The notes under the pieces are model-generated. The model saw only the letters and a program-made list of their open reading frames with translations. It made no database searches and had not been told where the DNA came from. This document shows positions 5,775-31,700 of a stretch of 64,000 nucleotides of DNA, one piece after another (within the stretch, counting starts at the first letter, position 1; every line of letters begins with the position of its first letter). The stretch covers positions 31,064,001 through 31,128,000 of the forward strand of contig OZ249436.1 in assembly GCA_965235115.1 (NCBI GenBank). Reading direction: 5' to 3'. The stretch is from Laetmonice hystrix. Its lineage: Eukaryota. The position numbers and the translations under genes are program-made.

Positions 5775-6274
5775 GGCCGGGTGGGCCCGTGGATCAGGCC
5801 CTTTAGCCAATTTAAAGGCCGTAGCCCCCACCGCTCCGGTGCAAAAGAAAAAAATTCGTTGGTCCTATATATAGCTGAAATTCACCAGAATGCAGGTATA
5901 ATGCACATAAATATTAACATTTTTCCGAGTGGCAAGTATTTCCTATATGGTTAGTTATAAACTGCATAGGCTATAGTTGATAAAACTTGGCTTCAAGGCA
6001 GGCTAAAAGTTTCCGTGCATTATGCACGAGGCTTTGAAAGTGCGGGTGCATGTGTATACATACGTGCTGGTGACAAGTCGACACTGGTACCCATCATGTC
6101 GACATGTTTACCCGAAAAATATACCGCGTATTGGCTGACTTGTTACTTTATGCTCCATACTGTCGTACTTCATTTGTTAGTATCGTTCTGGCAGCGAGGG
6201 AAAAAGGAAGAGGGAAACAAACATTGAAAAGGTATAACGGTGGGCTATAGCATGAGGTTGTAGGCCTATTAATA

Positions 6275-7131: not shown

Positions 7132-8499
7132 TATGTTTCGCTGAGCTTGGAATACGGGCCCATGTGCAGAGGCCTTCAAAACTTCAATAGACTATAGAGG
7201 CCTACGACTATAGCTATTATTTTAAGTGGAATTATTAAGATATCTGGAAATTAAGTAGTATAGAAAGATGATTAATAGGCATATTCCTGGTGCCTATTAG
7301 CTGCAATTTTAAGCGGAGTAAAAATAAATATGAAAAATGTGGATTTCCAACTGCATGGATATATTATTATGCCTGCCTTTGTCACAAGAAACACGTATAA
7401 ATTCCGAAGGGAGCGAGGGGCTACGTAAAAATTAGATCTATAGGTATTATAAAGACTATAGGCCTACCTTTTTTCATAATTATGACGGTTTTTATGACAA
7501 CTATATTGTCGGTCCGTCGGCTGTGTTTATTGGAGCCGGGGGAATTAAGGGGGTGTCCTATACTTTTGCCGTCTTGCCGGGGGCGCAGATCATGGATTTC
7601 GAAAGAAGGTGGGATGAGGGGATAGGAGTGAAAGAAGGAAAGTAGGCCTAATATTAGCATAGACTCTCCCCTCCCGCAACACAATGCCAACTGGACATAG
7701 GCATGCAGTGGGGCATCCGGGGTGGGGGGGGGCCGCCCCCTTAGATTTCTTCTTTTTTACAGTCAAAATAAAAGAAATGTAAGTGGGACGCCCTTATCAA
7801 AATCCTGCCCCCCCCCCATCAAAATACTGGTGCGCCCCCCCCCCCCTTATCAAAATCCTAGAATCTATAGGCCTAGGCCTAGATCCCCACTGCTATATAT
7901 AGGCATGCATATAGGCCTATAAAAATAATTCGCCCATTAGGCCTACATAATTATATAGGATACTACATGTATATCCAAGCGTCAAGCCTTAAGAAATTCA
8001 CTTACACGGTAAGCATAAATTGGACAAGTTTTGATAATTTCCCGTGGGACCGTCACCAATAGCTTTTAAGTTACGGTAGCGCCCTCTATCGTTTTGATTA
8101 TGCCTGTCGACATTGGGCAGCAGGTTCCACATAAAGCAGGCCTGTGGGAGGAGGCCTACCTTTTTTCATATTCGCGTCTCCTGTTAAGATAAATAAGGGC
8201 TTTAGTAGCTGCCAGTAGGCCTATAATTTTAGCTTGAAGGCTATAATAATTAAGCCCATAGGCCTATATAGGCCGTAAGATGGATCTATATATGCCTATA
8301 GGCCTACGCGTGTTGTTTTCTGGTTTTTGTTTGTTTTTGTGTTTTCTGGGGGGAAGGATATACTTGTTTCAATCAATGACAGGACCTATTTAAATAATTG
8401 ATTTGTTACTGCAGTTTGCCGGATCCGGCGCGTGCGTTCTGTTTTATTTAGGCCTATAAGCCTAAGCAAAGATAGAGATTCCAGGTCAATTTCAAATTT

Positions 8500-9559: not shown

Positions 9560-9826
9560 GGCTCTCAACGCGGATTGCAATCATGGCGGCTGGGAAGAGA
9601 CGAGTGCTACCGTGGCAGAAAGATCATGATTTACAGGTGTACAGTTCCAGCTTCTTCTCTGTAAGCATACTTAACGATGATTGATTCGACTCGTGCATCA
9701 TTAAAACATTACAAGGTTGACTGAGCGAGGAGAACATCCGAAGGAACGTCTCCGAGAAATCGGTCAACATTGCTCGGACCGAACCGCAGAGAGAGGGGTT
9801 GCTTTGAGAATTGATTACTGAGGCAG
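9560..9826 (+). other. Probable 5' UTR exon of the zinc-finger locus (5' boundary approximate)
   Basis: CpG-richer segment ending in donor CAG|GTAACA at 9826/9827. The next clear acceptor TTTCTTTTCTTAG|G is at 10405/10406. Confidence 0.5.
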
Positions 9827-10593
9827 GTAACAATTTAAAATGCAGAACCTGGTGGTCCTACTTTACATTTCAGTGACCTTTTGTTAACGATTAATATTTG
9901 GATTTCTTCTCTTGGAAGTATTTTTATTTTCCTTTGCGTATTTCTAATATGGCCTTGAGGTACGCCAGGGTATGTGTGGTACATTTTGTGGTGTGGCATT
10001 TCTAGGCCCTAACCTAAACTAAAAAAACTATTCAATTTGTAAGGCTGATTTAAAAGCACAGTCTAAAACCTGCATGAATGGATTGCAATGTTTTCATGTG
10101 AGGCGATTGCCATGATATTTCTGTGGGTAGGCCTATATATAGTTGAAGAATTGACCTATATAAAATTGAAAGCCTAGGCCTAATTGTTCAACTGATTGGG
10201 GGAGGGAGGGGGGGGGGAAGAAAACGTTTGCTGATTCATGACTGGATGTGATGTTGCAAAAGAAGGTCTACTATAAAGTCTATAATATATATGTGAATTC
10301 CTGTCTTGAGTTTGTCTTTTAATTTTGAACATATCTTGAGATTGATAATTTAGTATAATTTATAATCCCATGTCAGTACTAAGTGTTTTTTATTTCTTTT
10401 CTTAGGACTGATTGCGAAGTGATATATCATTAACGAGGCAATCAAAGGCTAGTGGAAAGGCTTCTTGAAGTCTTGGGCACATCTCCAAACCTACCAACCA
10501 GACTCTGCAGCTAACTTCCAGGAGGCAACGGGATTTCATGGGCCAGTTGGCCAGTTTTTACAGGCAGTCCAGGTGAAACTTGATATATGTTGC

Positions 10594-11424
10594 ATGATGA
10601 AGCCGGATCAGGAACGTGTCAAGAGCTTACTGATTGATACGGTGACACTTTTGTGTAAAAACAGTCTGCAGTTCCAAAATGAGTTGTGTATAGAAGGGCT
10701 GCTTGGGGTGAAAGTGGACTCTAGCGATGTCTTCTTTGTACATATCAGTGAAAATTTTCAGAGCCCTTCTTCAATCCAGAAAGGTTCCAAAAACACAGGT
10801 GACTTGGCACCTGCAACCACAAATGAAGCCGGTTCCAAGGTGTTTGATATTCAAAAACATTTACCAGGTGGTAATAATGTTGTGGAGGTACGGTCCCCAG
10901 AGGCCATCGCCAAACCTGCTCCTGTTCTTGCAGGACAAAGAAGAGTTCCGCGGAAAGCTTCCAGTCCCCAGAGGTCTTCTCTGACCTCACAAAAGCTAGA
11001 CGGACTAGGCAGTGACTTTCAGCATGTTTCCAATGTACATGATGTACATGAACATCAAAACGCCAGTGACTCGGACAAAGACAGGCAGACTGACCAGGAT
11101 GGTGGCGAGGTTACCCCTTATATTCCTTTTACTAATGTTGGGAAAAGAGAAGGCAGTCATGACTTCCAAGGGCCACCTCTCAAAAAGTTGCACCCTGTAG
11201 ACCATGAGGGTCTAGACTCAAATGGCACACATGCATACTTACATGACCCACAAGTCTCTCCATGGCCCAACATAGCTGGCAATCTGGAGCTGGCATCTCA
11301 GAGTCAAAGTGCCACCTTTGTGGAACCTGAGGAGAATGAACTCAGAGGTGACATCTCTCAGCCTGGATGTTCGACTTGGCCAACTGCTAGCCAGACAGTC
11401 ACAGCTCCAACGGCAGTTGATATG
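10594..11424 (+). CDS. Constant N-terminal coding exon (277 codons) of a multi-isoform C2H2 zinc-finger gene
   Basis: ATG at 10594 starts MMKPDQERVKSLLIDTVTLLCKNSLQFQNELCIEGLLGVKVDSSDVFFVHISE, followed by a low-complexity linker. It ends at the in-frame donor ATG|GTAGGT (phase 0). Exon acceptor is at 10406. Confidence 0.8.
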
Positions 11425-12391
11425 GTAGGTCAAACCTCATTATCTAGAAGAATTCTATCCAAAATAAATTTGTGCAGCTCTTATACATATATATATATAG
11501 ATGTAAAGGTATCAATGTGAATTATTTAAATGTAATTTACAGTATGAGGTGCCCATATTTTCTTTGTTGTTTTCATCAAAATATGTACTGGATCTGTTTA
11601 CTTGTAACTTGATCAAAAGTGTGTTCATCCAGTTTTTATGAAATTCTAGGAACATTTGACAAATCTTTGACAAGCGAGATGAGAAAAAGAACACGATAGA
11701 TGAAAAAAAGAACACATGATTTTGGTGCCAGCATATATATATATAGTAAAAAAAAAATCATGTAACATATATCCTATAATCATATTCAGTGAAATGTAAC
11801 CTGGTAACTAAGGTTAATAAAAAGCATAAATTCAGTGTTTAGTAGTAATTAAGTATGGCATAATTTAATGTAAAACAAAGGATATTCTGAATGCTGAACA
11901 TGTTTTTTTCTCTATTTTTTCCCCTTTTTTGGGCTCCTGTTCATATATTAATTTGTTGTCCGTAAGTGGAATTTCTAAAAATCTTTACCTGAGATTGAGT
12001 GAAAACTTCTCTTTCAGTCAACTTTCTACTTGAGTTATGATTAGTTTTGATTGCAAATTGTGGCAAGGTCAGACCATTGAAATTAGACCAGGTGGTGACA
12101 TGGAAAGTTAAACTTTTGCCACTTTTTTCTGGGATTCAGTTTGATCTTCGATATATTTCTAGAAAAATTTAACCATAATAGATTCTGCCTGATTTGATTT
12201 GTAATTTAAATATGCCTTATTTGTTGTAAATGAAAAAGTATGCCTATTCAATGTCATGAAGTGTTGAGCTGTGCTCATCATTTGCATTATGATAGGTCTA
12301 CTCACTCTACTGGTACATATTGTACCCCTATATCAGTACATATGAAATTTAAAAGGGGGCATTTGAAACTATTGTGAGTGGCCAGGAGGCC

Positions 12392-12929
12392 TATATTATA
12401 CAAATATTGGATGGCGGCGAGTCCACTATACAGTTTACGGGACGAAGAAAAGCGATAATGGACCAGGCGAAGCCGAGTCCATTATTGCTTTTCAGAGTCC
12501 CGTAAACTGTATAGTGGACGAGCTGCCATCCAACACTTGCTATATTATACACCTATAGAATATAGGGCCTAAGTAAAATATTGATAATCCCATATAAATA
12601 AAGTCGAGAACACCCGCTTATGAAAATTATGTAGGTTAAACTTTTCTGTAACCATGGTCAATGTGACAATTGGACACATTAATTTAGAACCCCATTAACT
12701 AGTTACTATAGTTAAATTCATCTTATCTTATCCATCTTATCATCTAGAAGCAGCCTGGGCAGCCGGGCAGGACTGCTCTTATCATTTAGATCTACTTTGA
12801 CGTCGTCTCTATGGTTTCCAGAGCGAACCGTCCAATATCGTATTTTACCATCCAATATCAAAATTTTCGGGACGGTCACGTGGTACAAATGGACCAATCA
12901 GATTGCTTAGCTGGGCTAGGTGTATAATA
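12392..12929. mobile_element. Palindromic repeat element with a ~125-nt hairpin (GGCGAAGCC loop) and a short inverted TATTATACACCT motif
   Basis: Arms TTGGATGGC..GTCCACTATACAGTTTACGGGAC and GTCCCGTAAACTGTATAGTGGAC..GCCATCCAA span 12407-12533. TATTATACACCT (12543-12554) pairs with AGGTGTATAATA (12918-12929). Superfamily uncertain. Confidence 0.55.
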
Positions 12930-13857
12930 TTGTCAAGTTAGGTTAACCTAGTTGACCTTTATGCCCCAACAAGCACCACCTGTTCTAATGCCCCTGCATC
13001 ATCCATTCCTATGTCAGCAGTATTCATGATTATTACTTAAATGCAGCCTTAAAGTTAAGAGAATGGAATAACACTATTTTAAAACAATAATTTAGTGTAC
13101 TTGCATACACATACTTGCATACATTTGCTGAATGAAAAAAGGATATTCAACTGTCATCTGCTTTGACACTTCAGGCTACTCTGTTGCCATACATGTGGTA
13201 AAAGAGTAATTAATTTTGATTAATGAAAATCGGTTCCAGAGTGGCAAAAATTTATGGATCAAAAGTGGCAAAAAGTCATGTAGAGAAAGAGCGAGACAGA
13301 GAGAGATAGAGAGAGAGAGAGCGAGCGCAGTACCCCGGTACTTACCTGGTGGAGCACTGCAGTCATTACTTCATGGATCAGTGCTCATGGCACAATATGA
13401 TGGTCATGTCTCAAGGAATCATATAGTGTGACTTCAGAAGCCATTGTAGGGTTTTCCTTACAGTTTTATGAAATACCCAGCTTCTAAGTCTCATCCTAAA
13501 TTTCCCAAGAATACTCGTTCAGTGAGGTGCTTTAGCACTCCACCTTTTTCAGCAGAAACGTGCAAATGTTGCTGTCAGAAAAGGAAAGATTTATAAACCG
13601 AAAGCATTGTGATCCAGTTTGTATTGATTTAATTCTGGACCATGCTGGGCTGGCCAGGAGCCACAGACACAAGCTCAACATAATGGGCAATGGTATCAGT
13701 CGTGTGGAGTGAAGTCGAATTTCCCCATGTCTGTTTGTAGGAATGCTGGCCAGCCTGCTGTGTGGTTTGAGCCCATCTCAGCCATATCGTGGCACTGCCC
13801 AACCTACCTGTGCACGCCTACCTGCACCCATCTAAACACTCGTTTTGTCTGCTGCAG

Positions 13858-14529
13858 GTCGTACCTCACCCACACTTTGTCTTGGCCACCCCAGAAAGTG
13901 TGCAGATACTAACCCCTCCGAGGTATCCTGCTGCGGGTACTGCTGCTGCCGCTGCTGCTGCCGCCGCTGCCGCCAAGAGGACCAGGCAGGCCCAGCCGGA
14001 CGGCAAGTTATACAACTGCGACAAGTGTCGCTACACCACCAAACGATTGTGGAACCTTCAGCGGCACATGCGCAAACATTGGAAGGACCTCACAAAGTGT
14101 CCACTCTGTGTTGAGGCTTTCTTTATGAATGACGAACAGTTGCGGCAGCATGTGCAGTCCTCACACCAAAACGTGGACAGTGTTCGGCATCATTACCTGG
14201 AAATAGAAAAACACCTCTCAGGTGCTTACGCAATGTCGGAAAATGGTGCGGCCGAGGACCCGCAGGATAAAAGGGATGGGCAGGCCAGGGACCAGGATGC
14301 CACCGATAATTACGATGTCACAGAACATACTGCCGAGTCAGATGGGGAGGAGGTGGTGCAAGTTGTAGACATTGACCCTGACGAGGGAGACCCTCCTAAT
14401 ATAAACGACACTAATACTCTGGGCAGGGAAACATCAAAAGCTAGCCAACTTGACATCCCAGAGGAGGCAGAGAATGCTGTTGTGGAGGATCTTAGAACTG
14501 TTTCTCCAAAGGCAGAGATTCAAAACTGA
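13858..14529 (+). CDS. Alternative terminal exon A: poly-Ala tract, two C2H2 fingers (second atypical), acidic tail
   Basis: Acceptor TTTTGTCTGCTGCAG|GTC, phase 0. Fingers CDKCRYTTKRLWNLQRHMRKH and CPLCVEAFFMNDEQLRQHVQSSH. Stop TGA, then AATAAA at 14649 and 14733. Confidence 0.8.
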   Translation, partial: VVPHPHFVLATPESVQILTPPRYPAAGTAAAAAAAAAAAKRTRQAQPDGKLYNCDKCRYTTKRLWNLQRHMRKHWKDLTKCPLCVEAFFMNDEQLRQHVQSSHQNVDSVRHHYLEIEKHLSGAYAMSENGAAEDPQDKRDGQARDQDATDNYDVTEHTAESDGEEVVQVVDIDPDEGDPPNINDTNTLGRETSKASQLDIPEEAENAVVEDLRTVSPKAEIQN

Positions 14530-16171
14530 GATCAACCATTTGTTTTTTGGTCTTTCTCGTTACTGTAATTCTTTATAGTAGTGTACTGGCAAGCTGTAGC
14601 CTCACTTCTCAGGCAGGTACATATTTTTGGTTTCTACTCGTTTTGGGTAATAAATGTAATAACTACATTAAAACTCATAAGACAAAAGATTGAACAAATT
14701 GAGATTTCGGATTCATGACTGAAAAAAAAGGTAATAAATCAAGTATATAATGATTTTACTTAAAGCATGCACTCCCAACTACTGGAAAGATCCCTCTATC
14801 CTTATATACAGAGGGGTCTCATTTTTAAGAGCAGATTAATTTGTTTTGGGACAAGGGTTAAAAAGAGGGTGAGCCAGGAAACCGGAATTGTGCTTATTTT
14901 TATCCTTGGCCTAAGTAAGTAATTGTAACCTGTAGTTGGGGTTTATGTGAGAAGCATGTTTTGGCTTAGTTCCTCAAACTGTACTTATGAATCAGGGGCA
15001 ACCATTGTTAGACCGCACACAAGCCATTTTAGGCACTGATCTCAAAGCAACTTGAAAGATATGGCGCAAAAAGTAAGCCAACAACAGTGAGAATTTTTAG
15101 TGCTTCACATTTGAAACTCAGAAGTCTTCGGGAGTTTGGAAACACTCCTAGAGATAGTGGTGAGAAACTGCATGTGAAATGGCTCATCCACTTGTAAAAA
15201 AAAATAATGAAAAGGTTTTTTAGAATTTAGTGACCACAGCGACCAAAGTGAGGAGCTTACCCTGCAGAGAACCTTGCTAAAATTTGATCTACTACTGTCT
15301 TGCCATCCCTGGTTTTGTCCGGTTGCCAACGTGGCATTCAATCAGCAGTGTATGAGTTCTAGGAAACGTTGCCACTCTTGTTGTCCTTTTGCTGCAGAGT
15401 CAATCTGATGTTATTACGATTTTAGAATTTTCGTGTGTCCGACATGAAGAATGAAGACAACATTCGTAACATATTGAACACTCCTGGCTGCCTGGTTTAC
15501 CACCGTACTCATTCAGCATGAAATGGCCAGTATTTTTATCCTACCCAAATGGCATCGCTTCCCTTTACTGTCGAAACTTGACAGCCTTGAAAATACACTG
15601 GACATGTAGTTTGGGGATAGATAGCAGACTGTGAGTTCTGTCCATTGTTAGACATTGCTGCAGCAAATGGATACAATCATGTTAAATAACTGTTTTGGAA
15701 TCCATAATATTTACAAGATGTTAACCCTACAGGGCACTCGTTAGAAACCTGCTTATTGCTGTTAATTGCGTTATAATGGAGGAAAGAGGATAGAATTTCT
15801 ATTTTGGTCTAATTTACAAGTGACAGCTTCCCCAATCAGGGCATTAAATAATGGTTATTGGTACCTACACTGAATTGTTTGGTGTTTGGTGGTACCATAT
15901 TGTTCCCTGATTTTAACAATGCGAGACATTTTATCTTTTGGTTTCGAAGAGGTCGATTATTTTTCACTTGGACGTTGGTTGTCTGTTGATGTTGGTTCAT
16001 CTTTTGTTAGTCCCATGAGGGATAGTTCGATACTGATAACTTTCAGTATCAAATAGACAAACCATATGAGATATTGCTATACCATGGCAGCTTTTCTGTC
16101 TGACAGAACAACATTGGGATTTGCAGTTTTTCACAGCGAGAGGTAACTGCTGGGGTAATATGTGATCTGCG

Positions 16172-17002
16172 TAATGCCCGGTGCACACAACACGATTCTA
16201 GTCGGTGATCCGCAATCTGAGCAATCGCCGACTGAGAGTCGTGTAGTGTGCATGTAATCGCCGACTAGATAAGACGAGTTATGACGAGTTTCGTGTCGGC
16301 GACCTGCAGTCTTATACGATTCAAAAAATGAATAGGGCCCAATAACAGTCATGTAGTGTGCACCACTTCTAAGATTGTAGTTGTCAGTGTGCGCACAATT
16401 CCCGACGCGACTCGATCGTGGGGAACACATGGTCCAATCACAGCGCAGGAATTTTGTCATGCGACACCCTATGGATGCATGCGTGCCTGCATGCTTGATA
16501 ATAATGGGTGACGCCAAACCCAGTAGCCATGCTCCTCTGGAAATTTAAAAAAGAACATCAAATAATGTAATCTCTGGAGTCCTGATTGTGTGGAAATATG
16601 AAGATTTCCTTTGGTTAAAATAATGTAGGCCTATTTATAGGCCTACACTTTCTTTCTTTTACAAAAATGTCCTTAATATAGGCCTAGTAAATTTTCAAGG
16701 GGGGATTTCCGGATACTTGGAAACCCCCCTGGAGACGCCACTGTTTCATATCAAGTTCAAAACGTGATGGTGACCGTCATGACGTGCGTGCACTTATATG
16801 AGTAGGCCTAGTTCAAGTTTTCAACACCAGGATCGTGGCAATGGGCTGGCGGGTCGCCGACAATTGAGTCGCAAGTGTGCATGAGTCTCGTTGTAGGAAT
16901 CGTGTAGTGTGCGCGCGTCAGTCTTTAATCGGGAATCGGGGGAAACTGATAGCAACTCAACTGTCGCGTCTTAACAAGTCGTGTAGTGTGCACCGGGCAT
17001 TA
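16172..17002. mobile_element. MITE with TIR TAATGCCCGGTGCACAC and internal TCGTGTAGTGTG repeats
   Basis: Left end TAATGCCCGGTGCACACAACACGA, right end TCGTGTAGTGTGCACCGGGCATTA; TA/TWA-type target; no coding capacity. Confidence 0.7.
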
Positions 17003-19954
17003 CACGTCATCAAATGGAATACGAAAGTTGGCCCAACATTAATTTGGTGATGATAAGGGAATATTTACCAAAACCCAAACGTGGTTCCTCCAAATGTGTT
17101 CTCCAAGGAATATGAATATTTTTATAAATATTATGACAATTATGAAAGCATAGTTTTAATAAACTGTAAATGGTACAGACTGAGGAAAGTTAGTTGATAT
17201 TTTATCAAGTTGTTGTCAAATACACCTTTTTCTTTCATTTTTACCACATAGCTTTATCCTTTTATTTAGAAAGGCCATATAATTTTATGTCCTAAGTTTT
17301 ATTTCAAAGTTATTCTAAATTATTTAAATAATGATTGATCGGGGCCGTGAATAGTTTTAGGATAATTTAGAGTACAGTAAGAATACTAAGACTTATACGG
17401 TACAAACACATTGTACACTTAGGTTATGAGTTGTTATAACGGTAACCCCAATCTCCCAATCAGCTAACATTTTTGCTTTATGACTTTGCTACTTAACTTG
17501 TAAAATATGATACCATTATTCAAGAATTTCTACATGATAAGGACACTTTGATAACAAAAAGCCTTTGCTTCTATACCAAAGAGTTTAATGTAAGTCCAGT
17601 ACTAGTGTAAAGTTTGTGTGAGTTCTTTGTGATGGAAGTTTTTGAGGGATGATACTGTATTTATCACAAAGTGTGAGTGAGAGCTTATGAAATTCGGGAG
17701 GGGGGAGACTTAGGTTATCGAACACATCTCTTTTAAAAGATAGCCACCTTGTTTGTTTGTGAGGAAGTTGATGTTAACACATATAAAGAATGTGTGTATG
17801 TAAACTTAAATCTCTAAACACCAAATGTTAGAAATCAGTGCATTGAACCAGGTATTCAGGAGACCAGTATGTGCTGAAAGTTTAATCAATACAAGAATAC
17901 AAATACCAAGGAGAAATAGGCCTACTTCAAGAATCCTGCTTCACGTAAATACTCTTTATTTTGAATCAGTGACCTTCTTGATACACATATTACAGGGGAT
18001 TAGTTGGAGAGAGTACGCACGTAAGTGGTATTTGTTGGATGAAATAGATTAGTTATAGTTTTTGAGTTGAACATTCAAAGAAGCTACTCGTACTTAAAAG
18101 TATTGAATTAATTAGTACCAGGGTTATTCTACAAGCATTTATGTTTTGTCAACTCCAGAAGATTAAATGGTACCGATTGTTGAAGATATTAAAGTATTAA
18201 AGGGCCCAAGCCAAACTATACGTTTGTAATACAATTTTGGTGGGCTGTTATTTTGAGATGAGTGTAGTCTTAATGTCGTTGTTTGTTGGAAGATTTACTT
18301 GTTACAAAGCTATATAGCTAGGCATGAAGGATGGAGCAGCTCAAGAAGTGACTGTTATGTCTGTAATGGTGAACGCATGCATAGCTGTCGAAACTGCATT
18401 CACAGAATAAGCTGTGTGAAACAGGTCATTATCTAATAACAGCAAAAATTTTCATATCACTAACAGTGGCAGAGGAATTGCTCACACACTTCCTTCATTG
18501 ATATTTCAGTAATACTTGTTTCTCAAGGATGTTTAAGAACCCCGTGAGGTACATCGGAATCTTTGATAAGTTTGAGTCTTTTTGTACCGTGCACACTGTC
18601 GTTGGTAGATGAAGCTCGAGTTGGGACAGTAGAACTCCCATGTTCCAGAAGCTATGAACCTTTTGTTGAAGTGAAAGTAGTAAGATATAAATTTTCTTTT
18701 ATCCCATGTCTTGTAGGCCATGTATACAAGTACTGGTTTAACACTGAGAGAAAAGAACGTTCATAGACTGTGTGAGAGTTGCTGCTGGACAGGAAACTCT
18801 TACATTCAATATTGAATTATCCTGGCCTAAAATAGTGAATCTTTCCATAACATTGAAAATGTAAGTTTTGAAAGGTGAAAATGATTTTTGCTCTTGATAA
18901 TAAGAGATACATGTTCCAGTAATACTCTCAAGATAAGTTATTGTCCTCAGGCAGGATCTTTCTTTTGAATCGTTTTTAACAAATATCGAAAAAGGTGAAG
19001 GACTGAAGGAAGTCTGGAATACCATGTGATGTTCTTTTACACCAATCTTTTGGATATAATTTAAAAATAATTGAGAAAGGTTATTTTTAATCTTGGAAAT
19101 AGTTTTCTTGTAAAATATTCTTCGTACTGCCTCTCAGATTTTGTCTGTTATTGCACTAGCTGATACGTTCTGGAAATCCATTGAACGTTTAATTTTTTAA
19201 TTAGTCTATTTTTTTAAATACAAATACCGGTATTACTGATGGTAAATGTGAAGGTCATTATAACGTTACCATACCCAAAAACTTATACATAATTTTCTCT
19301 TAATGTTTTCCACATGGATGCTCGTTTTTATGCTAAATAAGGGCCCCGCGGGTACTCAGCTATGATTTGTTCTTACCATGTGGCCAAGTAATTATAGTGT
19401 ATTTGACCAAAACTTACAGTCCACAATTGCAGTTGTGCAATGATGTGTTGTATAATGATCTAATGTTAACTTTCGTTAGTGGTAAACGTTAGCACTGGAT
19501 CTGGGATTGCATGTGGTGCTTTATACGTTAGTTATACCAACCGTACATAATATATTATAATGTAGCAGTTATGCAGAGGTGCTTCACCCTATTCTGTGTC
19601 GAAAGTGAAATAAAAAAGCATGTTTAGAAAATGCCGCATTATGTCCTGATGTCCCTTTGCTTGTAGTAAGTCATAAGTCATATCTGACATATAGCACCAT
19701 ATTATTGGTGAAACCCACTGGGAAATGGAAGAAGTGCCATAGCATAATTGATTAGATATACTGGTGTTTATGCAGTATTTTCCTGATTGAATTTGACCAT
19801 GATGACATATTCTAATATGAATAATGTCATATTTTACATGAACTTGATGTTACCTTTAAAGGTTTTTTTCTGAAGGTGATGAGGTGTGTGCGCGTGTGGT
19901 TGAACCGGTGGCTGTGGTAGGAAACATTAACCAGGCGTACCTGTTGTTCTTTAG

Positions 19955-20377
19955 GGCTTGGTCCACCCTGACCCATCCACCCAGGGCACCACCACAACCA
20001 CCACCACCGCAACACTCCGAGAAACCTCCCACCAGCAGTCCACCTCCGAGAAGTCGCATTTAATCGGACAGCGAGGCCGAAGGTCCAAATTATCACTAGC
20101 GAACATACAGCCTTACGGTTGTCCAGTTTGCGGCATGGAATTCTCCCAACTGGGAAATATGAAGCGGCACTTACGCACACACACAGGAGAGAGGCCGTAC
20201 AAATGTGAACACTGTTCAAATGCTTTTAGGCAGTCGACCCACCTTAAACGGCACCTTCTCACACACACCAAAGAAAGGCCGTTCCGCTGTAGAGTGTGTT
20301 GTGCCACCTTCATCCAAAGCAATAACCTACTGGTCCACATGACTAATTATCATAGTGGAGAGATAGCGGGAGAATGA
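19955..20377 (+). CDS. Alternative terminal exon B: three tandem C2H2 fingers
   Basis: Acceptor CTGTTGTTCTTTAG|GGC, phase 0. Fingers are joined by TGERPY and TKERPF linkers; stop TGA. There is no in-frame ATG before the first finger, so it is unlikely to be a stand-alone gene. Confidence 0.85.
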   Translation, partial: GLVHPDPSTQGTTTTTTTATLRETSHQQSTSEKSHLIGQRGRRSKLSLANIQPYGCPVCGMEFSQLGNMKRHLRTHTGERPYKCEHCSNAFRQSTHLKRHLLTHTKERPFRCRVCCATFIQSNNLLVHMTNYHSGEIAGE

Positions 20378-20785
20378 CAGGTAGTGCAGAACCTCTAATT
20401 CTCTGTCCTTTAGGTTTCTCCAGGCTTCTGGTAGTCGGCTTCTTGTTGCTTTTAAAAGACAATGGGAGACACTAGCTCTCCTTGAGTAGATAGCAATCAA
20501 GACCAAAGATTCCTGGAAACACCCTCCAGTAGTAGCTAAGATTGCAACCTAGGCTAAGTCTTTTCGTATTCTGGTCCTTAGATCCCTTGCCAAGTCAAGC
20601 CCTAATGTTATTAATCACTGGACATTTCAGAATTTAATGAAATGAATTTGATGTTCACGACACTGTATTTGCATGTGCACTTTGTTGAAGTCTAGGACGT
20701 AAGATTTGATTGTGTACATAAATATTCTGTGTTAAGGTGAACTGATAAGGACCAACTATTAAACAGGACCTTTTTCCTCCTGCAG

Positions 20786-21313
20786 AAACACTTGTCAACG
20801 GAACAGTCATGGCCTGCAGTGGTGTCCCCTGTTCTTGAGCGACTTAAGAATCCATTGGTCGAGAGGTGGCACGGGCGTACAGGATGGGAGGGTGCGTCGA
20901 TTGTTCAAGCTCTTGGCCTGCCGCACCAGCTGATGACCGCTTCAGTCAGGCTAAGCCCTGCTGGACCCCAGGCCGGTGCCCTGACCAAACCTTATGAGTG
21001 CCCGGTGTGTCACCTGCATTTTGCACAGGGCGGGAATATGAAGCGGCATATGAGAACACACACGGGCGAGAAACCGTACAGGTGCCAGTTATGTGGTGCG
21101 GCCTTTAACCAGTCAACCCACCTCAAGTCCCATTCTTTGGTCCACACTGGGGAGAGACCTCATAAATGTTCAGTTTGTAATGCCGCTTTTAAACGAAAGA
21201 GTGCGCTGCATGTGCATTTTACCAGTGCACATGCGCATAGACAGCAAAGAGGAGAGAGAAACAGGATAAGCGAGGACTTTAACATCAGTGTAACATCGGC
21301 CAGTACCGGTTGA
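20786..21313 (+). CDS. Alternative terminal exon C: three tandem C2H2 fingers
   Basis: Acceptor CTTTTTCCTCCTGCAG|AAA, phase 0. TGEKPY and TGERPH linkers; stop TGA. Confidence 0.85.
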   Translation, partial: KHLSTEQSWPAVVSPVLERLKNPLVERWHGRTGWEGASIVQALGLPHQLMTASVRLSPAGPQAGALTKPYECPVCHLHFAQGGNMKRHMRTHTGEKPYRCQLCGAAFNQSTHLKSHSLVHTGERPHKCSVCNAAFKRKSALHVHFTSAHAHRQQRGERNRISEDFNISVTSASTG

Positions 21314-23357
21314 CACCTGTTGGCACTATGAACAGTGCCCAACTGGTCGACAGGAATGACATGGAACTTTTTGAATCAGCATTCTTCATGCTTGGTGATT
21401 TGTTGGCCATTTTAACGAATTGTGTTTTACCATATCTACATTCCTGGCATTGCAGGAAGGCCATTCCATGTTTTTGGTATTCACATGTTCACTTTATCTT
21501 CAGGGGAGTTTCTCCTTAGAATCACACCGAAGTCGTTAAAATCTAGTCTGGAAGCAGAGATTATTCACTGGTTTTTAAAGTCTGGTCTGTAGTGGCCAAG
21601 TTTTATTAGTAGACACTGTGCTCTCTAGAAGTGAGACATTTCGTATCTAACTGGACATCCCGCCTGCTGCAGTCTGGTTCCCCTAGAAATGATCAGGGAT
21701 CCCATTCCACCGCTGTTTAGTCTATCTGCCCCTTGTCTAAATCTCCTGTTAATTGTGAAAGGAAACTATTTAAAAGATGCACCCAAAGCCTTCGCGTCGG
21801 TTACTCTTCTAAACCAAGATGTCGATGAAGTAAGGGAAACAGTACACTTTAAATATAAAGTAACTCAAAAGTAGATCTATTTATATAGAGTACATTGTTT
21901 ATTTTATTGTTATTTTGCAAAAATAGCTACTTTAATACTAATAGCTCCTGGGTTATTATGCAGTTTACAAAATAGTTCCCGAAAAAGAGGATGAATGGCT
22001 TATTTAGGTTCACAGCCACTACCCTCCGTTTTAACGGCCAGGTCTTTGCTATGGTCCATGTGTGGTGCAGTAGTTCTGGGTTCTTGGTCATTATTGCTTT
22101 TCTATGATCTTTTAGGTGTTCATGTATGTTGTTATGTGTTAGCAGATGCATCATAATAAGCCTGCTTCAGCTCGTTATTTCAAATGTCTTTTTTCAAATA
22201 TTCAAACATTTGCAATGTAGAAAAGTCAAGTATTCATTGAATTTGATGGATAGCATTAGTGATCACATCGAGATGTATGAGAGATTTTGTGATGAATTAC
22301 GGTTCCAACAACCTCTTGATTACAAAAACATCAAAGAGGCAGTGAAGAAGAAATATAAAACTGATATCTTTATCCCCCCCCAAAAAAAAGAACCTCTTGG
22401 GTTCAAAGCATAGGTTTAACAATAGTAGAACAATATACACAGGGTACTGCATTCGTGATTTATATTTATGAAATACATAAATGTACAGACTGAGATTTTC
22501 CGTGTACATCATTTTCTCAGCAGCAAGGCATTTGTTATATACCGGTATTTATTTCCGAGTCTTGTCGCAGCACTTGTGTTAAAGTTGTAGTAGGTGGCAA
22601 GCAGCCACACTAGAAAGGGTCCATTGCACAGAACCACTTTCTCCAATGTTATTGTAAAATACAATAAAAAAGATTCTTCATGGAATATTCATTTCTTTGT
22701 CTTGTCCTGATATAAAGTTGAGAAGCAAGGAACCAGCAATATATCAGTTATAAATATTCAAAGGTGGTACTTATTGCCGCCTACCCTTTTTGCCCTGTCC
22801 TAGATTGAGAATTCCGCCAGGTCGTACCGAGGCAATTGATATTGTTTGGCTTTTGTAAATGTGCGAAGTACAATGTATATGGACTACATGCAGCTTCACA
22901 TAGTTCTGCCAACCAACAGATAAAATGCCAGAGTTTCGTAGATGCCTTGTTATGCATGTAACTGGCATTGTGTTAGAGATTAAAGTTCAGAACACAGGCA
23001 CGTCTTATTATAAGTCTAAATTACACAGGGTCAGAGAGGAGTATTAAACGGTCAGGTGTGGGGGTTGTACGTCCACATCTATGAACAAATTTTTCATTTC
23101 AATTAATATTTAATTAACAGATAATACCTTTATGGACTTTTACATTTTAATTAATTTAAATATGAATTTTCGTATATATTCTAGGCATAACGTATGGCGA
23201 TTTTAAGTATCTGTCCTAGAACACAATTATCAAGTCTTCCCACTGAATTTCATTTTGTGTGATCTGTTCACCTTTATTACAGTACATGTACATGTACACG
23301 TACAGTGTCTTGATCAACTGTTCACTCACACAGTTGGAATGATGTGTCTATTTCCAG

Positions 23358-23780
23358 GTTCGCAAGCCTCTACAGATTGCTCCCATAGTTCCCTACATGC
23401 CCATTGCCCAATCCCCGCCCAAGGTTTCTCAAACCAAGTCAGGGACGTGTCCAATCTGCCAGCGTAAGGTTTACAGTGTCAAACAACACATGGTGACGCA
23501 CACAGGCCTACGACAACACGAGTGTCACATCTGCTGTAAACGTTTCGGCAAGAGCGACAACCTCAAGGTCCACATGCGCACACACACGGGCGAGAAGCCG
23601 TACACGTGCACGCTGTGCGGTATGGCGTTCACGACCAACGGTAACCTCAAGAGTCACATCAAAGTGCACGACAGCGGGGGAAATGTTCGAGAAGCACGGA
23701 ATATGAAATGTGCGATCTGCTACAAAAAGTTTGCCAGCAGCGAGGAAAAAAACAGTCACGTTTGCCCTTACGATATTTAG
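23358..23780 (+). CDS. Alternative terminal exon D: one shortened finger, two canonical C2H2 fingers and a terminal C2HC-like finger
   Basis: Acceptor TCTATTTCCAG|GTT, phase 0. Fingers CHICCKRFGKSDNLKVHMRTH-TGEKPY-TCTLCGMAFTTNGNLKSHIKVH; stop TAG. Confidence 0.85.
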   Translation, partial: VRKPLQIAPIVPYMPIAQSPPKVSQTKSGTCPICQRKVYSVKQHMVTHTGLRQHECHICCKRFGKSDNLKVHMRTHTGEKPYTCTLCGMAFTTNGNLKSHIKVHDSGGNVREARNMKCAICYKKFASSEEKNSHVCPYDI

Positions 23781-25391
23781 AGATAAGGCATCCACCGAAT
23801 GAATGACCAGCTGAATAGAGAGAAAGCAAACACCAGGACGATTTTGATGAACAAGTCCCCAAAATGACAACTCCCGCCAGCAAGTCTTACCATTTTGGTG
23901 GAGAACCAAACGACGGCGATTTGAACCCACAGCCTGATGACCACCAAACCTTCTAATTTCCCTTCAGCTTACGGAATTTGAATAGAACTTTTTAAAAATA
24001 AAACTAGGCTGGTTGTAAAGCAGGGTTTCTCATAGAGCGTACATCTTAGAAGAAGGCAATAGACTGAACGATCTCGTGTTAATTTACATAAAAAACCTTT
24101 CTCTATTGCTCTGCATCTACCATGGACATGCTAGAAACCCTTTTTATGGTTGTTCTTTGGGTGCTAGACAAGCTAAAAATACCTGTAGGGCTGGACACCT
24201 AAATGGATCCGCCAGTGGAACGTCTGGAATGTGGATGGTATTATAACGTATTTCAATTATCTTCAATCAGTTCGATTAGCGCTTGGGGTCAAATTAGTGC
24301 AATAAAATGAAGCATTTTCTGAAATTCAACTCAGCATGCAAATTCTGGAATTTCGGTTCCAATGCACAAATGCACATTGAATTACTTCCAATGTGCCTTG
24401 AACTAGAAGTCTGAATGGTCCAAATTCTATTATGCGCATCAATGCACAATCTGGGCTCTAGTTGTGAAAAGGGAATTTGGTAATTACTTGATCGGTGCAA
24501 CTTTATCACAAGGCGATCCCTGTAGTGAAATTAAAGAAGTGGGTTTGAGTCCTTACTTCTATCTTGATCAAACGTACAGTATCAGTAACTTAACCTGCAG
24601 GGGGAAGGCTGATACCATTTTCCTGTACTCGTCAATTCCAAAAACCTAGTCCTTGCAACATATATACGGTATAGATGCCAGTGATTTCTTAGTTTAGGTC
24701 CTCGTTGAGAATTCTTCTTTCGACGGTTGCTTTCAACGTGAAGCCCTCGGATAAGTAAAAATTAATTATTGTCCTTCCCCTGGAAAAAATGAGAAACGCA
24801 CCAAATGTTTCGTTAATTATATATATGCTTCAAACTTTACAACTTTCAAGAAAGTACTTTGATGTAAACGCACCTATGTTAGATTTTTATGCCCCTTAGA
24901 AAAGGGTTGGAGTAAAGACTAACTTCTCGTTTTTTGACGGCCAATGAGGAGGAAAGTAATGCTCAGAACCACTGTTATATAATTATGTAGAAACTGTTTC
25001 CATCAGGTTCCATCATTGGTCTGTCTGCTATTGATTGTGTCTGCTAGTCTAGGAACCACATAAACCAGTGTCCATTTCAAAGGCTAATAGACTGTAAAAT
25101 ATACTGGTACTTGGCACACAAGTATATGTAACACGCATTATACCACATCCACAAACTGACTGACGACTTGGGTTGTAAAACAAACCTGAGTTGTTTCAAC
25201 ATTAGTTGTGCACAGATTGTGAAGGCTACAATTGCCTACATAATAGTTTTATTAAAAATTAAGGTGTTCATCTTTCTTACAATAGCATCTTTATGTAGTA
25301 TCTGTAGCATATTGAATAAACTGCCAACTCTTAGAAACCAACAACTGCATGTTATTTTCAATACTTACAATTATTCACTCAAGACGCAACA

Positions 25392-25583
25392 GACGGTGCA
25401 TAGTTTACAATGTATATATGGTTTACAATGTAGATGGTGCATAGTTTACAATGTATATATGGTTTACAATGTAGATGGTGCATAGTTTACAATGTATATA
25501 TGGTTTACAATGTAGACGGTGCATAGTTTACAATGTATATATGGTTTACAATGTAGACGGTGCATAGTTTACAATGTATATGG
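25392..25583. repeat. 41-bp tandem array (four full units plus a partial) at the duplication junction
   Basis: Unit GA(C/T)GGTGCATAGTTTACAATGTATATATGGTTTACAATGTA starts at 25392, 25433, 25474, 25515 and 25556 (partial). Confidence 0.9.
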
Positions 25584-26057
25584 ACTACATGCAGCTTCAC
25601 ATAGTTCTGCCAACCAACAGATAAAATGCCAGAGTTTCGTAGATGCCTTGTTATGCATGTAACGAGCATTGTGTTAGAGATTAAAGTTCAGAACACAGGC
25701 ACGTCTTATTATAAGTCTAAATTATACAGGGTCAGAGAGGAGTATTAAACGGTCAGGTGTGGGGGTTGTACGTCCACATCTATGAACAAATTTTTTATTT
25801 CAATTAATACTTAATTAACAGATAATACCTTTATGAACTTTTACATTTTAATTAATTTAAATATGAATTTTCGTATATTTTAGGCATAACATATGGCGAT
25901 TTTAAGTATCTGTCCTAGAACACAATTATCAAGTCTTCCCACTGAATTTCATTTTGTGTGATCTGTTCACCTTTATTACAGTACATGTACATGTACACGT
26001 ACAGTGTCTTTGATCAACTGCTCACTCACACAGTTGGAATAATGTGTCTATTTCCAG

Positions 26058-26480
26058 GTTCGCAAGCCTCTACAGATTGCTCCCATAGTTCCCTACATGC
26101 CCATTGCCCAATCCCCGCCCAAGGTTTCTCAAACCAAGTCAGGGACGTGTCCAATCTGCCAGCGTAAGGTTCACAGTGTCAAACAACACATGGTGACGCA
26201 CACAGGCCTACGACAACACGAGTGTCACATCTGCTGTAAACGTTTCGGCAAGAGCGACAACCTCAAGGTCCACATGCGCACACACACGGGCGAGAAGCCG
26301 TACACGTGCACGCTGTGCGGTATGGCGTTCACGACCAACAGTAACCTCAAGAGTCACATCAAAGTGCACAACAGCGGGGGAAATGTTCGAGAAGCACGGA
26401 ATATGAAATGTGCGATCTGCTACAAAACGTTTGCCAGCAGCGAGGAAAAAAACAGTCACGTTTGCTCTTACGATATTTAG
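26058..26480 (+). CDS. Alternative terminal exon E: recent duplicate of exon D
   Basis: Same phase-0 acceptor as exon D. 423 nt with five substitutions relative to D; ORF intact. Confidence 0.8.
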   Translation, partial: VRKPLQIAPIVPYMPIAQSPPKVSQTKSGTCPICQRKVHSVKQHMVTHTGLRQHECHICCKRFGKSDNLKVHMRTHTGEKPYTCTLCGMAFTTNSNLKSHIKVHNSGGNVREARNMKCAICYKTFASSEEKNSHVCSYDI

Positions 26481-28757
26481 AGATAAGGCATCCACCGAAT
26501 GAATGACCAGCTGAATAGAGAGAAAGCAAACACCAGGACGATTTTTGATGAACAAGTCCCCAAAATGACAACTCGCCAGCAACAGCTCTTATTTGGTGGA
26601 GAACCAAATGACGGCGATTTGAACCCACAGCCTGATGAACACCAGCCTGATTCTCCATTTTAAACGGATTGACATTCCATGACAAAAATCTGACGCCACA
26701 GTCCCTTGCCTTGCTTCTAAAGAATTCACACAGGGTATCTCCTTACATAAAGAATTTTCGGTTTTCTTCAAAAATGTAGAATCACTTGATAGCATTTTCT
26801 TCAGACCAGAACTTCTAATTTTGACTCAAATTTCCCTTATAGCAGTGAATGGTGGCTGTAACCAGCAGCCTTCCATTCACTCCTATGTTAATGTAACGAT
26901 CTGCCCGGTTATTAACCAGCCTTAGTAAGACAGGCCTGCAGAGCTTTAGATCATTTGTAAAGCAGGGTTACTCTTGGAGCGTACATCTTAGAAGAAGGCA
27001 ATAGATTGAACGACCTCATGTTAATTTACATCAACAACCTTTCTCTATTGATACCGGGTATATTGTATCATGTGAGGCAGGATACTTCTTCAGTTTTTAC
27101 TTGCCTTTCTTTCTTTTTGCCTTATGCACGTTTGAAATGAAGTTCCTGGTGCAGGGACGAATCCAGAATTTTGTCAGAGGCAGCGGGTGGGGTGGGGGTT
27201 GGGGGGGGGGGGGCAAGGTTCAGTTTCTACCATAAGAGGGGGATGCACCCATTGATTTTGGCGAGGAAGCTACATCTCTGCATCTACCATGGACGTGCAT
27301 AGAAAACCTTTTTATGGTTGTTTTTTGGATACTAGACAAGCTAAAAATACCTGTAGGGCTGGACACCTAAATGGATCCGCCAGTGGAAAGTCTGGAATGT
27401 GGATGGTATTATAACGTGTTTCTATTATCTTCACTCAGTTCGATTCGCGCTTGGGGTCATATTAGTGCACTAAAATGAAGCATTTTCTAAAATTCAACTC
27501 AGCATGCAAATTCTGGAATTTCAGTTCTAATGCACAAATGCACATTGAATTAATTCCAATGTGCCTTGAACTAGAAGTCTGAATGGTCCAAATTCTATTA
27601 TGCCCATCAATGCACAATCTGGGCTCTAGTTGTGAAAAGGGAATTTGGTAATTACTTGATCAGTGCAACTTTATCGCAACGAGGTGATCCCTGTAGTGAA
27701 ATTAAAGAAGTGGGTTCGAGTCCTTACTTCTATATTGATCAAACGTACAGTATCAGTAACTTAACCTGCAGGGGGAAGGCTGATAGCTACATTATCGGTT
27801 GACTGGGACAGAAAATGGAAACTGATTTCCACAAATACCAGGCATGTTTATTCCACAGACTTGGGTAGATACAATCACCAACTGTTACATAATACCAGTA
27901 CTGCGGTGTGCAGGATATACCGGGGTAATGAATATTACATTTCTAGTTTTTTATACACCATATAATTATATAATTTCTGTAGACTGTAAACCCCTGCTAT
28001 TATCCGTGTCATCCTATTATCCTTTTTCTTTCGCTGAACCGGTATAGATGCCGGTGATTTCTTAGTTTAGGTCCTCATTGAGAATTCTTCTGTCGATGGT
28101 TGCTTTCAACGTGAAGCCCTCAGATACGTACTAAGAATAATTAATTATTTTCCTTCCCCTGGAAAAAATGAGAAATGCACCAAAAGTTTCGTTAATTACT
28201 ATATGCTTCAAACTTTACAACTTTCAAGAAAGTACTTTGATGTAAACGCACCTATGTTAGATTTTTATGCCCCTTAGAAAAGGGTTGGAGTAAAGACTAA
28301 CTTCTCGTTTTTTGACGGCCAATGAGGAGGAAAGTAATGCTCAGAACCACTGTTATATAATTATGTAGAAACTGTTTCCATCAGGTTCCATCATTGGTCT
28401 GTCTGCTATTGATTGTGTCTGCTAGTCTAGGAACCACATAAACCAGTGTCCATTTCAAAGTGCCAATAGACTGTAAAATATACTGGTACTTGGCACACAA
28501 GTATATGTAACACGCATTATACCACATCCACAAACTGACTGACGACTTGGGTTGTAAAACAAACCTGAGTTGTTTCAACATTAGTTGTGTACAGATTGTG
28601 AAGGCTACAATTGCCTACATAATAGTTTTATTAAAAATTAAGGTGTCCATCTTTCTTACAATAGCATCTTTATGTAGTATCTGTAGCATATTGAATAAAT
28701 TGCCAACTCTTAGAAACCAACAACTGCATGTTATTTTCAATACTTACAATTATTCAC

Positions 28758-31700
28758 TCAAGACGCAACAGACGGTGCATAGTTTCGGCTTAAACGATCA
28801 AATTCATTCTCCTAGAAAGGGAAAAATGACAACACAGAATGAAAATATAATTTAACCTATCTATTGCATTATAATGTAAAAACTATCTATTCAGTAAATG
28901 TGCACTACAGTGTAATCTAAAGTTAAGATAAAACTAGTCTTTCTTCCATGGAATGGAAGGGAATGTAGTAGAATCTAATGTATAATCGCTATAATAATTT
29001 ACCAGTATAGTTTCTCAGAACTAGAGTAGAGTATTTCCTAGCCATAACACTAACATTGGAACACATAGCTTCCGACAGTATTGGAAGTCTACTGCCTCCT
29101 GCCTAGGGGTTATATGTAATTATCAATAAAGGTATTGATATAATTGTAAATGATTGATGTCTGGTACCTTTGACAGATAGTCTTGTACGAAAGGATGACT
29201 TCTCCAGGAGTCCTTCATCTGTGACAGGTATCTGTTGCTCACCTGTAATACGACCAAAATTGTCCATTGTTTGCCTCATACATTCTGATTTACTTGTTAT
29301 CAATTGGGAAAGTCAGAATTTAACATTCTCTAAGGATATCAAGACTTTACGACTTTCTCAAATGCTGCTAAAATGTATACGTATATACCCAATATAGATC
29401 GCCACATTTTTTCAACCTGGACTCCCACATCAAAGTTAGGGGTGCGGCCATCTATCCAGACCCTAAGGTTACCCTCCCAGCCCACAGAGCCAGACTACAA
29501 GTTCCCCATTACGCCACCAGGGGTCCCTACACTCGTACATTTGTATGAACTTATTTATTAATTTCATAATGCTGCAATTTTATTTGGCATAATTACTTTT
29601 ATACTTTTTTGTATTGTATGCCTCATAACACTAACCCCCGGCATTTTACTAGTCCCTGCACTGACACATGGCAGTGCAAGGCCAGAACATCTGCTCATTT
29701 GGTGGGACACCTAGTGGTTATTCTAGGTACTAGATTGGTCATTGCATCTGTGATGGCTTTAAAAGTGGGGTGGAGTTTCTGAGGGCAATCCTGCCATGTG
29801 AATAGCCATCTAAAGTTTCTCCAAAAGATGTTTTGAAAACAAGGAGAACATTCTGGCTATATTGTTTGTGGCTATGCATGTTTTGTCCAGTACAATTAGA
29901 TGTTGTAAGCTTGGGGCGAGCAGATCAGGGAGCTGCAGCTCAGAAATTCCAAGTAACTTTTTCCCTGACCATGGGGTCTAAATCCCCCCTGCGGCTGTCT
30001 ATTTTGCTGTGGCCATCTGTCGGGTATATACGGTAACTCTGTCCTTTACGCAAAACACCGACTTTGATTATAATTCTTCCATGCTGTGGACTGAATGTTA
30101 TCTCCGATATTAAAACTCTTGTTATATCATGTACGTTTCAAACTGGGGAACGATATTACCTCATTATGTCAGCATTGAAATGGTCGTTTAGGTGAGAAAC
30201 TACTCACCTCTGGAGGTTTACCCAAGTGCTGGGATAAAACAATCATGTTGATCAGCGTTTCTGGGTTGTTGCTGTCCTGGAAAGGTAAAAAATCGTTACA
30301 GTGGAAATCTAAATAATAACAGTTCATCATTTAAATATTTCCAATACAGTTAGATGAAAGCACAACTGAAAATATTTTGCTTGTGAACTTTTGAGGTTAG
30401 ATTATTAGAGAACACATAATTGGGTCAGAAAGATGAACTGGACAGGGCTTAAATAAAATGCACAACAAAATAATTTGTTGGGCACTGGAGGAAGGATAAT
30501 TTGTATCGGCAGAAATTTAGAGTATGATATGGAAAACTACTTTTCCCTATTTGTCTACCTATGGTAACATCAGCATTGTCGTTCAAGCAATCTAACGAAA
30601 TAGTGTAACATTACTTATTACTACCTATTACAACTACTAGGCCTGGCTAACCTATAACAACTACTAAGCCTGTTATATGACCTAGTAGCAGTAACTAGTA
30701 CCTTATCCATGGCTTCCTGCAGGACACTCTCAGCATCATCAAACCGACCCTGGGACATGTAGCAGGCAGCCTGTCCATTCAGAAGTAATGGAGTAGAGTT
30801 ATGCTTGTCTGCCAGCTCTTGGAAGATGTAGTAGGCATCCTGAAGCTTATCGCCACCCTGGGAAAATAGCAATAAAGCTAATGATAAGAGCTATTATTAC
30901 CTCCCTTTATTTTGTTCTATATTTAAGAGTTGTAAGGGTGTCTGTAAGATTTTCAAAAAATTTTGAAAAGTACTACATGAAATCAGAAAATAGAATTTTT
31001 ATAACAGCCGACAAAAAAAAAAGAAAAAAAAAGAAAGAGTTTAGTCTGTAATTTTTCTGGAGAATCATTGACATTTCAACTTCCTGCAACCCACTTTTCA
31101 AATATTGAGACTAGAAATTACACGGCAAAACAATTCTGTTCTGGGAGTTTTCACATTCAGCTAGTGGAACCAATTACTGTAAAGACTATCTGTATCAATT
31201 TTACAAACTAATCTACAATTAATCGCTGTGCTTTCTCCCACCATATAAATCTATCACTGCAATATTGTCTATTATTAACAAGAATATGTATATTTCTCGA
31301 CACCTATAGTTACAATTGAGACTTATAATAAGTCACTCAATGACTTAGTTCTGTTATTACGATTTTCCTCATGTATTTTGCACCATGCTTGTGGAAATAA
31401 ACTAAACTAATATACTGACCACAGCCAGATTGAACCAGGCTTGAGCAAGCTGTGTCAGAATGCTATCCTCATCTGTTTCCTGCATGCGTTTCAACTCTTT
31501 CCTGAAATGCAAGATTATAGTCTGTTGATCAAAACGTTATGATTTCAACATTGTAATCAGAAGAATTTCAATAATGACCGATCAATTATGCTGACTACCT
31601 CTGGTATTATGACTAATTCTGTGCTATGTGCAAAAGTGACTCATGGAGTTTAAACAATATTACAAAGGATGAATTTCAGACTAGACTTACTTAGCAAGGT

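Follow-up and report, generated by a model that had tools for sequence, protein, structure and literature searches.

A 64,000-nucleotide (nt) stretch of the Laetmonice hystrix genome (GCA_965235115.1, contig OZ249436.1, positions 31,064,001 to 31,128,000 of the forward strand; this whole stretch is called the window below) very probably holds, as judged from its DNA layout, one gene with alternative last exons of which several are used. A constant exon closing at a phase-0 donor is followed by five C2H2 zinc-finger exons, each of which begins at a phase-0 acceptor and ends in its own stop. The layout is best read as convergent with that of the Drosophila genes lola and mod(mdg4). An earlier reading of the same letters (the original prediction) had proposed a BTB-less, non-insect locus laid out like those two genes, which fits all of the DNA evidence from the window, its paralogs and its relatives in other species; the multi-end isoform layout that it described stands, but the scale was understated, as the design is family-wide, its arrays reach at least 50 exons and some of its ends are not C2H2 fingers.

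Structure of the locus

The constant exon (10406..11424, + strand) opens after the acceptor ttcttag|G at 10405/10406, includes part of the 5' untranslated region (UTR) and carries 831 nt or 277 codons of coding sequence from the ATG at 10594 to 11424 (six-frame scan and direct reading), closing at the phase-0 donor ATG|GTAGGT at 11424/11425. It had been predicted to lack a DNA-binding domain; all of its coordinates hold, and no Pfam family matches it at E≤0.1. Downstream on the same strand, five phase-0 open reading frames (ORFs) begin right after pyrimidine-rich YAG triplets, at 13858, 19955, 20786, 23358 and 26058, and phase-blind scoring of acceptors upstream of the first finger selects exactly these five AGs as the best. 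The five variable exons, A to E, measure 223, 140, 175, 140 and 140 codons, all with their own stop and all with Pfam C2H2 matches, and joining each to the constant exon gives predicted products of 500, 417, 452, 417 and 417 amino acids, the lengths originally predicted. Since each finger exon has its own stop and no strong in-frame donor inside it, the finger exons cannot be chained, and chaining was rejected. A search of the window turned up no sixth finger exon, no remnant of one and no further constant exon.

Exon A (13858..14529, +) encodes poly-Ala, one canonical and one degenerate C2H2 finger and an acidic tail, with an AATAAA at 14649, while exons B (19955..20377, +) and C (20786..21313, +) encode three C2H2 fingers each; neither A nor B has a Met before its first finger. 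Exon C is an old paralog of B (58% identity over 86 amino acids). After exon B, the sole poly(A)-like hexamer lies at 20758, 28 nt upstream of the exon C acceptor. Exon D (23358..23780, +) has two canonical fingers with one atypical finger on either side, and exon E (26058..26480, +) is its recent copy with five amino-acid differences, as had been supposed. Both belong to an apparent tandem duplication in the assembly (22869..28785) with units at about 22869-25406 and 25570-28785, which are 92-97% identical in four blocks by self-BLASTN; a 41-nt repeat at 25391-25581 sits on the junction of the duplication.

Upstream of the constant exon, a probable non-coding first exon with promoter region (9578..9826, +) was read from the sequence with low confidence, as were its candidate donors at 9636/9637 and 9826/9827, and the word at 9578-9590 resembles a YY1 motif. 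Two short out-of-frame upstream ORFs at 10538/10587 lie before or overlap the main ATG, and a palindrome of ~160 nt occupies 12392-12549, inside the first variable intron.

Splice phase among the paralogs

The first ~57 residues of the constant exon were matched at 36 places in the genome and a second query added three, giving 39 loci with the window included, of which 32 lie on contig C1. The original prediction held that the shared phase of the window exons was not due to chance; four independent exons give modest odds alone, and the paralog statistics remove the doubt. For the 20 highest-scoring of the 38 paralogs, donors were surveyed along with a first tile of 9.5 kb on the downstream side, with donor and acceptor matrices that were blind to phase, and the paralog acceptor set consisted of 25 tiles outside the window. 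The best donor was in phase 0 in 19 of the 20 paralogs (20 of 21 with the window), against a background of 74/199 among all GT dinucleotides. Similarly, among 111 same-strand finger ORFs in the paralog tiles, a count that keeps one or two doubtful ORFs (in L024 and L017), the best acceptor was in phase 0 in 96, in phase 1 in 11 and in phase 2 in 4. Compared with a YAG background of 40.5%, this gives p=1e-23 with the window excluded, and the bias is also present in finger ORFs without a Met before the first finger (34/42 in phase 0, p=1e-7); these p-values overstate independence because the exons of one array are related. Finger ORFs on the opposite strand were absent from the 25 paralog tiles (0 against 111).

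An unrelated multi-finger cluster on contig C8 served as a control, small in size (two tiles and nine ORFs, several of them frameshifted), in which all four strong acceptors (score ≥5) were in phase 1 and none of the nine ORFs had a good phase-0 acceptor. On this small control, we rejected the idea that finger exons in this genome are in phase 0 as a rule. The cluster, which extends over C8:24.4-29.4 Mb (L032, L033), is a different family; its long multi-finger ORFs keep to one strand over stretches on the megabase scale, have phase-1 acceptors and include several frameshifts.

Large arrays of variable exons

The paralog at G000:C1:29172071-29229000 (+) (L015, L029, L031, L114) has at least 50 two-finger exons, counted in four tiles over about 40 of its 57 kb, with further matches in the unsampled gaps. 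Similarly, the paralog at G000:C1:29392001-29427022 (-) (L010, L030, L115) has at least 36 exons in three tiles, the array continuing at the last tile. Median exon spacing is 430-570 nt in three large-array tiles, and no exon for the N-terminal domain was found inside the two arrays. In 70 of 86 cases, an exon has its nearest relative inside the same array, a pattern indicative of local tandem duplication. In addition, the pooled ratio of non-synonymous to synonymous divergence (dN/dS) is 0.32 over 10 non-overlapping close exon pairs, and such pairs are, by this substitution measure, under purifying selection.

These figures bear on whether more than one end is used. That a single end is used, with the rest being recent decaying duplicates or assembly artefacts, is barely credible. 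Exons D and E, which are 97% identical and whose 423 nt differ by five non-synonymous and no synonymous changes (numbers too small for a verdict on selection), would fit a relaxed copy or a falsely duplicated allele, but deep divergence has left exons A, B, C and D intact, synonymous sites are saturated between B and C (dN 0.39), the arrays show the low pooled dN/dS given above, and the predicted base-contacting residues differ among all 50 and among all 36 exons of the two large arrays.

Another explanation would treat each finger exon as a small gene in its own right, with a promoter, a non-coding first exon or a spliced leader of its own, so that only the nearest one joins the constant exon. 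A Met precedes the first finger in 56 of 87 exons, an ATG directly follows the best acceptor in 15 of 111, and the joined forms of relatives described below show one end each, all of which would suit separate genes. This explanation is nevertheless highly improbable, as window exons A and B lack such a Met, the phase-0 bias persists in the Met-less ORFs, the short median spacing leaves little room for promoters and all of the exons lie downstream of a constant exon on its strand.

Three pairs of N-domain genes are arranged head to head, 3-8 kb apart, on C1 at 47052068(-)/47055023(+), 20789170(-)/20797294(+) and 31683891(-)/31691610(+), and perhaps share promoters.

Ends other than zinc fingers

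Finger-poor paralogs often have phase-0 exons of other kinds, which were picked from a listing and not by a blind test. For example, one array combines a C2H2 exon, a DUF3504/QRICH1 exon (L018:3621-4724, phase 0, E 1e-33) and an unnamed alpha/beta domain of ~215 amino acids. DUF3504/QRICH1 is a Crypton-derived family. The 215-amino-acid domain, which matches no Pfam family, occurs in 55 genome copies (e.g., L023:2626-3261), and all 55 lie at most 51 kb downstream of an N-domain exon and on its strand, none being on the opposite strand, spread over 10 loci that have as many as 17 copies apiece. Downstream zones of this kind make up about 0.2% of the genome. When the non-finger ends are counted, 16 of the 20 surveyed paralogs have at least two candidate ends, three have one and in one none was identified. 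Together, the 111 paralog finger ORFs, the five window exons, the 55 copies of the second domain and the one DUF3504 exon amount to over 170 candidate ends from the sampled part of the genome.

The 215-amino-acid domain has a confidently modelled fold, with a predicted local distance difference test score (pLDDT) of 81. Its fold matches are middling: SIRV1 ORF119 scores Z 7.2 (root-mean-square deviation [rmsd] 3.6, 110 residues aligned) and parvovirus Rep nuclease domains score Z 5.3-5.8 with 126-141 residues aligned, and ferredoxin-like folds are numerous among the matches. A domesticated HUH-Rep origin of the modelled domain may be taken as a lead only. The array of paralog C1:29327424 (+), on which the array of C1:29427022 (-) converges, mixes single-finger exons with seven copies of this domain.

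The N-terminal domain and its relatives

The constant exon begins with an unnamed N-terminal domain of ~55-57 amino acids (10597..10767, +), modelled by AlphaFold2 with a mean pLDDT of 84.7 as one long helix (residues 3-23) and a beta-hairpin (strands 29-41 and 44-55). The domain itself matched no Pfam family, a sequence search of the PDB gave nothing below E 0.79, fold searches with the model gave nothing significant (best Foldseek E 1.1, best VIA Z 4.3), and a query of the ESM Atlas with the domain alone returned no usable match. MADS-box entries appeared in the fold search (MEF2D at Z 3.8 with rmsd 3.5 and 45 aligned, SEP3 at Z 3.6 and SRF at Z 3.2), and unrelated entries scored equally. 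A profile of the domain recovered 1,791 relatives at E≤0.001, among which the named ones seen were the annelids Lamellibrachia satsuma and Ridgeia piscesae, with 67-69% identity in the domain, in keeping with a probably annelid host. Most of a tree built on the 57 domain columns lacks resolution, and no order of events can be drawn from it. We infer that the domain self-associates or acts in protein interaction; natural proteins that carry it twice in tandem (P0041-P0046, P0179) may, by their sequence, at most hint at self-association. Longer fused homologs did not turn up in a word-based search, a negative of little weight.

The donor position is mirrored among homologs. In 26 database homologs, the ORF runs from the domain through a linker to a PGCSxW-like motif, and then in nearly all to Val and unrelated sequence, nearly all closing as ...PGCSxW...[DE]x|V at the column that matches the window donor; Val followed by unrelated sequence is what results when a phase-0 GT donor is read through. 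The original prediction had suggested a check for phase-matched finger exons beside relatives of the domain. In a cross-species sample of 80 metagenome loci, many of them apparently redundant, 16 downstream finger ORFs were found, of which 14 are in phase 0 and none is on the opposite strand, with about seven in L104 and two each in L094 and L112; most of the loci have none in the sequence covered. Many of the loci L036-L103 have first ORFs of 400-670 amino acids and no finger exon within up to 8.7 kb downstream, and these homologs are possibly members without ends or with other types of end.

A finger occurs in the same ORF as the domain in 8 of 172 proteins, all eight solely from Logan contigs, which would indicate spliced RNA or intron loss if the ORF calls are taken to ignore introns. 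For example, P0026 stops at SQQ|VN*, and its cluster mates P0032 and P0033 go on as SQQ|LVSM... through a finger exon; similarly, P0155 and P0173 show the same split between a read-through form and a finger-joined form. In L034, a constant region ending in ...DM|, like that of the window, is fused to a finger exon with nothing in between, and 560 nt past the stop there is another finger exon in phase 0, acceptor included; read from its sequence, L034 would most simply be a complementary DNA with a 3' UTR that continues through the next alternative exon. In addition, P0127 joins the N-terminal domain to the 215-amino-acid module and the L. satsuma gene model LSAT2_010159 joins it to fingers.

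Proposed mechanism

A single promoter would produce a pre-mRNA with the constant exon, which encodes the N-terminal domain and a low-complexity linker and has one phase-0 donor. The spliceosome would then link this donor in cis to one of several downstream phase-0 acceptors, and each variable exon would supply a complete DNA-binding module and a stop, so that each mRNA would encode one transcription factor. Exons beyond the chosen one would be kept in the 3' UTR or removed by polyadenylation; as no end has a donor, an exon left unused downstream could persist in the 3' UTR with no later exon junction. Tandem duplication and divergence of variable exons would generate new specificities. We also infer the use of multiple ends from one constant exon, joining in cis and DNA binding by the products.

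Several observations weigh against this scheme. Fewer than two finger ORFs lie in the first 9.5 kb of 10 of the 20 paralogs, and four of the 20 have at most one variable exon of any kind within the stretches examined. Most of the 80 metagenome loci are without a downstream finger ORF, some over 6-9 kb, in a scan that covered fingers only. Among the relatives, no constant exon was seen to take two different variable exons, and the two informative clusters each consist of one finger end and a read-through form. Poly(A) hexamers occur in 29 of the 58 gaps between exons where 25 are expected, which is no enrichment, and the comparison of D with E gives no selection signal. A Dscam-like docking of the intron start with the acceptor regions was no better than in shuffles except at exon B, where the excess is small (-25.4 versus -20.4 kcal/mol for the best of 8 shuffles), and acceptor hairpins were not found (z -1.6 to +1.6).

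The same products could also arise with many joins made in trans from separately transcribed variable exons, perhaps even across paralogs. Insects offer a precedent in the sections of the literature on mod(mdg4) and lola (PMC11426971; PMC4667647), the arrays exceed 50 kb, one universal phase would permit mixing between paralogs, and a same-strand layout is compatible with trans-splicing, the Anopheles gambiae mod(mdg4) being described as same-strand in the pertinent part of one source (PMC4667647). Unlike in fly mod(mdg4), however, none of the 111 finger ORFs or of the 55 second-domain exons is on the opposite strand, and cis-splicing suffices; joining in trans on this scale is considered unlikely, and joining in cis is preferred.

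Comparison with known systems

The genes broad, fruitless and tramtrack are BTB-zinc-finger genes with a few alternative finger exons, and to our knowledge this layout is confined to arthropods. Their small cis arrays are of the scale of the window locus, and the BTB scaffold is theirs only. In Drosophila, lola carries a TTK-type BTB domain and has 20 isoforms, 17 of them with different C2H2 ends, and mod(mdg4) has at least 30-31 isoforms, mostly with FLYWCH ends and with some exons on the opposite strand, according to the passages that treat these genes (PMC11426971; PMC4667647). As in lola and mod(mdg4), a shared 5' coding region in the window and its paralogs is followed, at the DNA level, by many 3' exons that each have a short DNA-binding module and their own stop, and growth has proceeded through tandem exon duplication. 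Unlike in those genes, the constant region of the window has an unnamed helix-hairpin of ~55 amino acids in place of a BTB domain, the design is repeated in about 39 genes of this genome, one of them with at least 50 exons and thus beyond the isoform counts cited above, and the ends include DUF3504/QRICH1 and the unnamed 215-amino-acid domain; no opposite-strand exons occur in the window family, unlike in fly mod(mdg4). The window family is, on the sequence of its constant region, which lacks the BTB domain, not a member of the TTK-type BTB-zinc-finger genes, and the relevant passage of one source reports that TTK-type BTB domains were not found in Annelida or Mollusca (PMC11426971).

Further systems share other features. 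Like the KRAB-, SCAN- and ZAD-zinc-finger families, the window family places a lineage-restricted N-terminal domain on diverse C2H2 modules and has expanded as a family, and no KRAB, SCAN or zf-AD domain was matched by Pfam on the constant region at E≤0.1. Those families diversify mainly by whole-gene duplication and have long finger arrays, whereas in the window family an end has 1-4 fingers and a gene has many ends. In Dscam, large tandem arrays of alternative exons are joined to a constant part. There and in protocadherins, the variable part is 5' or internal and the products are cell-surface receptors, whereas in the window family the variable part is 3'. Arrays of variable exons joined to a constant part are likewise described for protocadherin clusters in a section of one source (PMC9068888), and its passage on cephalopod C2H2 expansions presents these as gene clusters, without the present layout (PMC9068888).

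Mollusc clusters in the ESM Atlas include entries named 'uncharacterized protein isoform X29' and 'zinc finger protein 37 homolog isoform X25', with C2H2 listed and the BTB family not. Their feature score to the joined full-length protein P0263 is 0.94, with a recognition score below the mark set by the tool and no alignment behind the likeness. The high isoform numbers may hint at the same layout, as a lead only, and automatic mollusc annotation may already contain this system. The original prediction knew of no published description, and in the mainly open-access literature, supplements aside, neither this N-terminal domain nor annelid or mollusc arrays of this type were found described, so that absence from print is not proven.

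If the proposed reading is correct, the lola/mod(mdg4) way of obtaining many factors from one gene arose again, on an unrelated and undescribed domain and at a larger scale. Counts of zinc-finger repertoires would then change for worms and perhaps for molluscs, and the question would be raised of how one acceptor is chosen among 50 that are spaced about 500 nt apart. The two unnamed, well-folded domains are also targets for work on structure and function. A wider proposal, which is conceivable but held tentatively and with more doubt than confidence, is an ancient lophotrochozoan system (annelid and probably mollusc) independent of BTB, in which dozens of genes would share an oligomerising domain and a single splice phase and jointly yield hundreds of transcription factors, exon choice would be cell-type-specific or stochastic, and the variable slot would also take domesticated mobile-element domains (DUF3504/QRICH1 and the weakly HUH-Rep-like domain). 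Under this proposal, many spiralian 'single-exon zinc-finger genes' would be the ends of a few such loci.

Neighborhood of the locus

Upstream of the locus, a multi-exon EF-hand gene (872-2812, +), whose exons were read from the sequence, resembles sarcoplasmic calcium-binding proteins. Downstream, Pfam matches identify exons of HAUS1 (38295-38860, +) and gamma-butyrobetaine hydroxylase-like exons with GBBH_N and TauD (43785-47814, +). Inverted copies of an element of ~870 nt, which resembles a miniature inverted-repeat transposable element and has terminal inverted repeats of ~200 nt, lie at 6272-7134 and 41861-42726 and are 91% identical, and minisatellites occupy 59344-60265 (50-nt period) and 62595-63157 (29-nt period).

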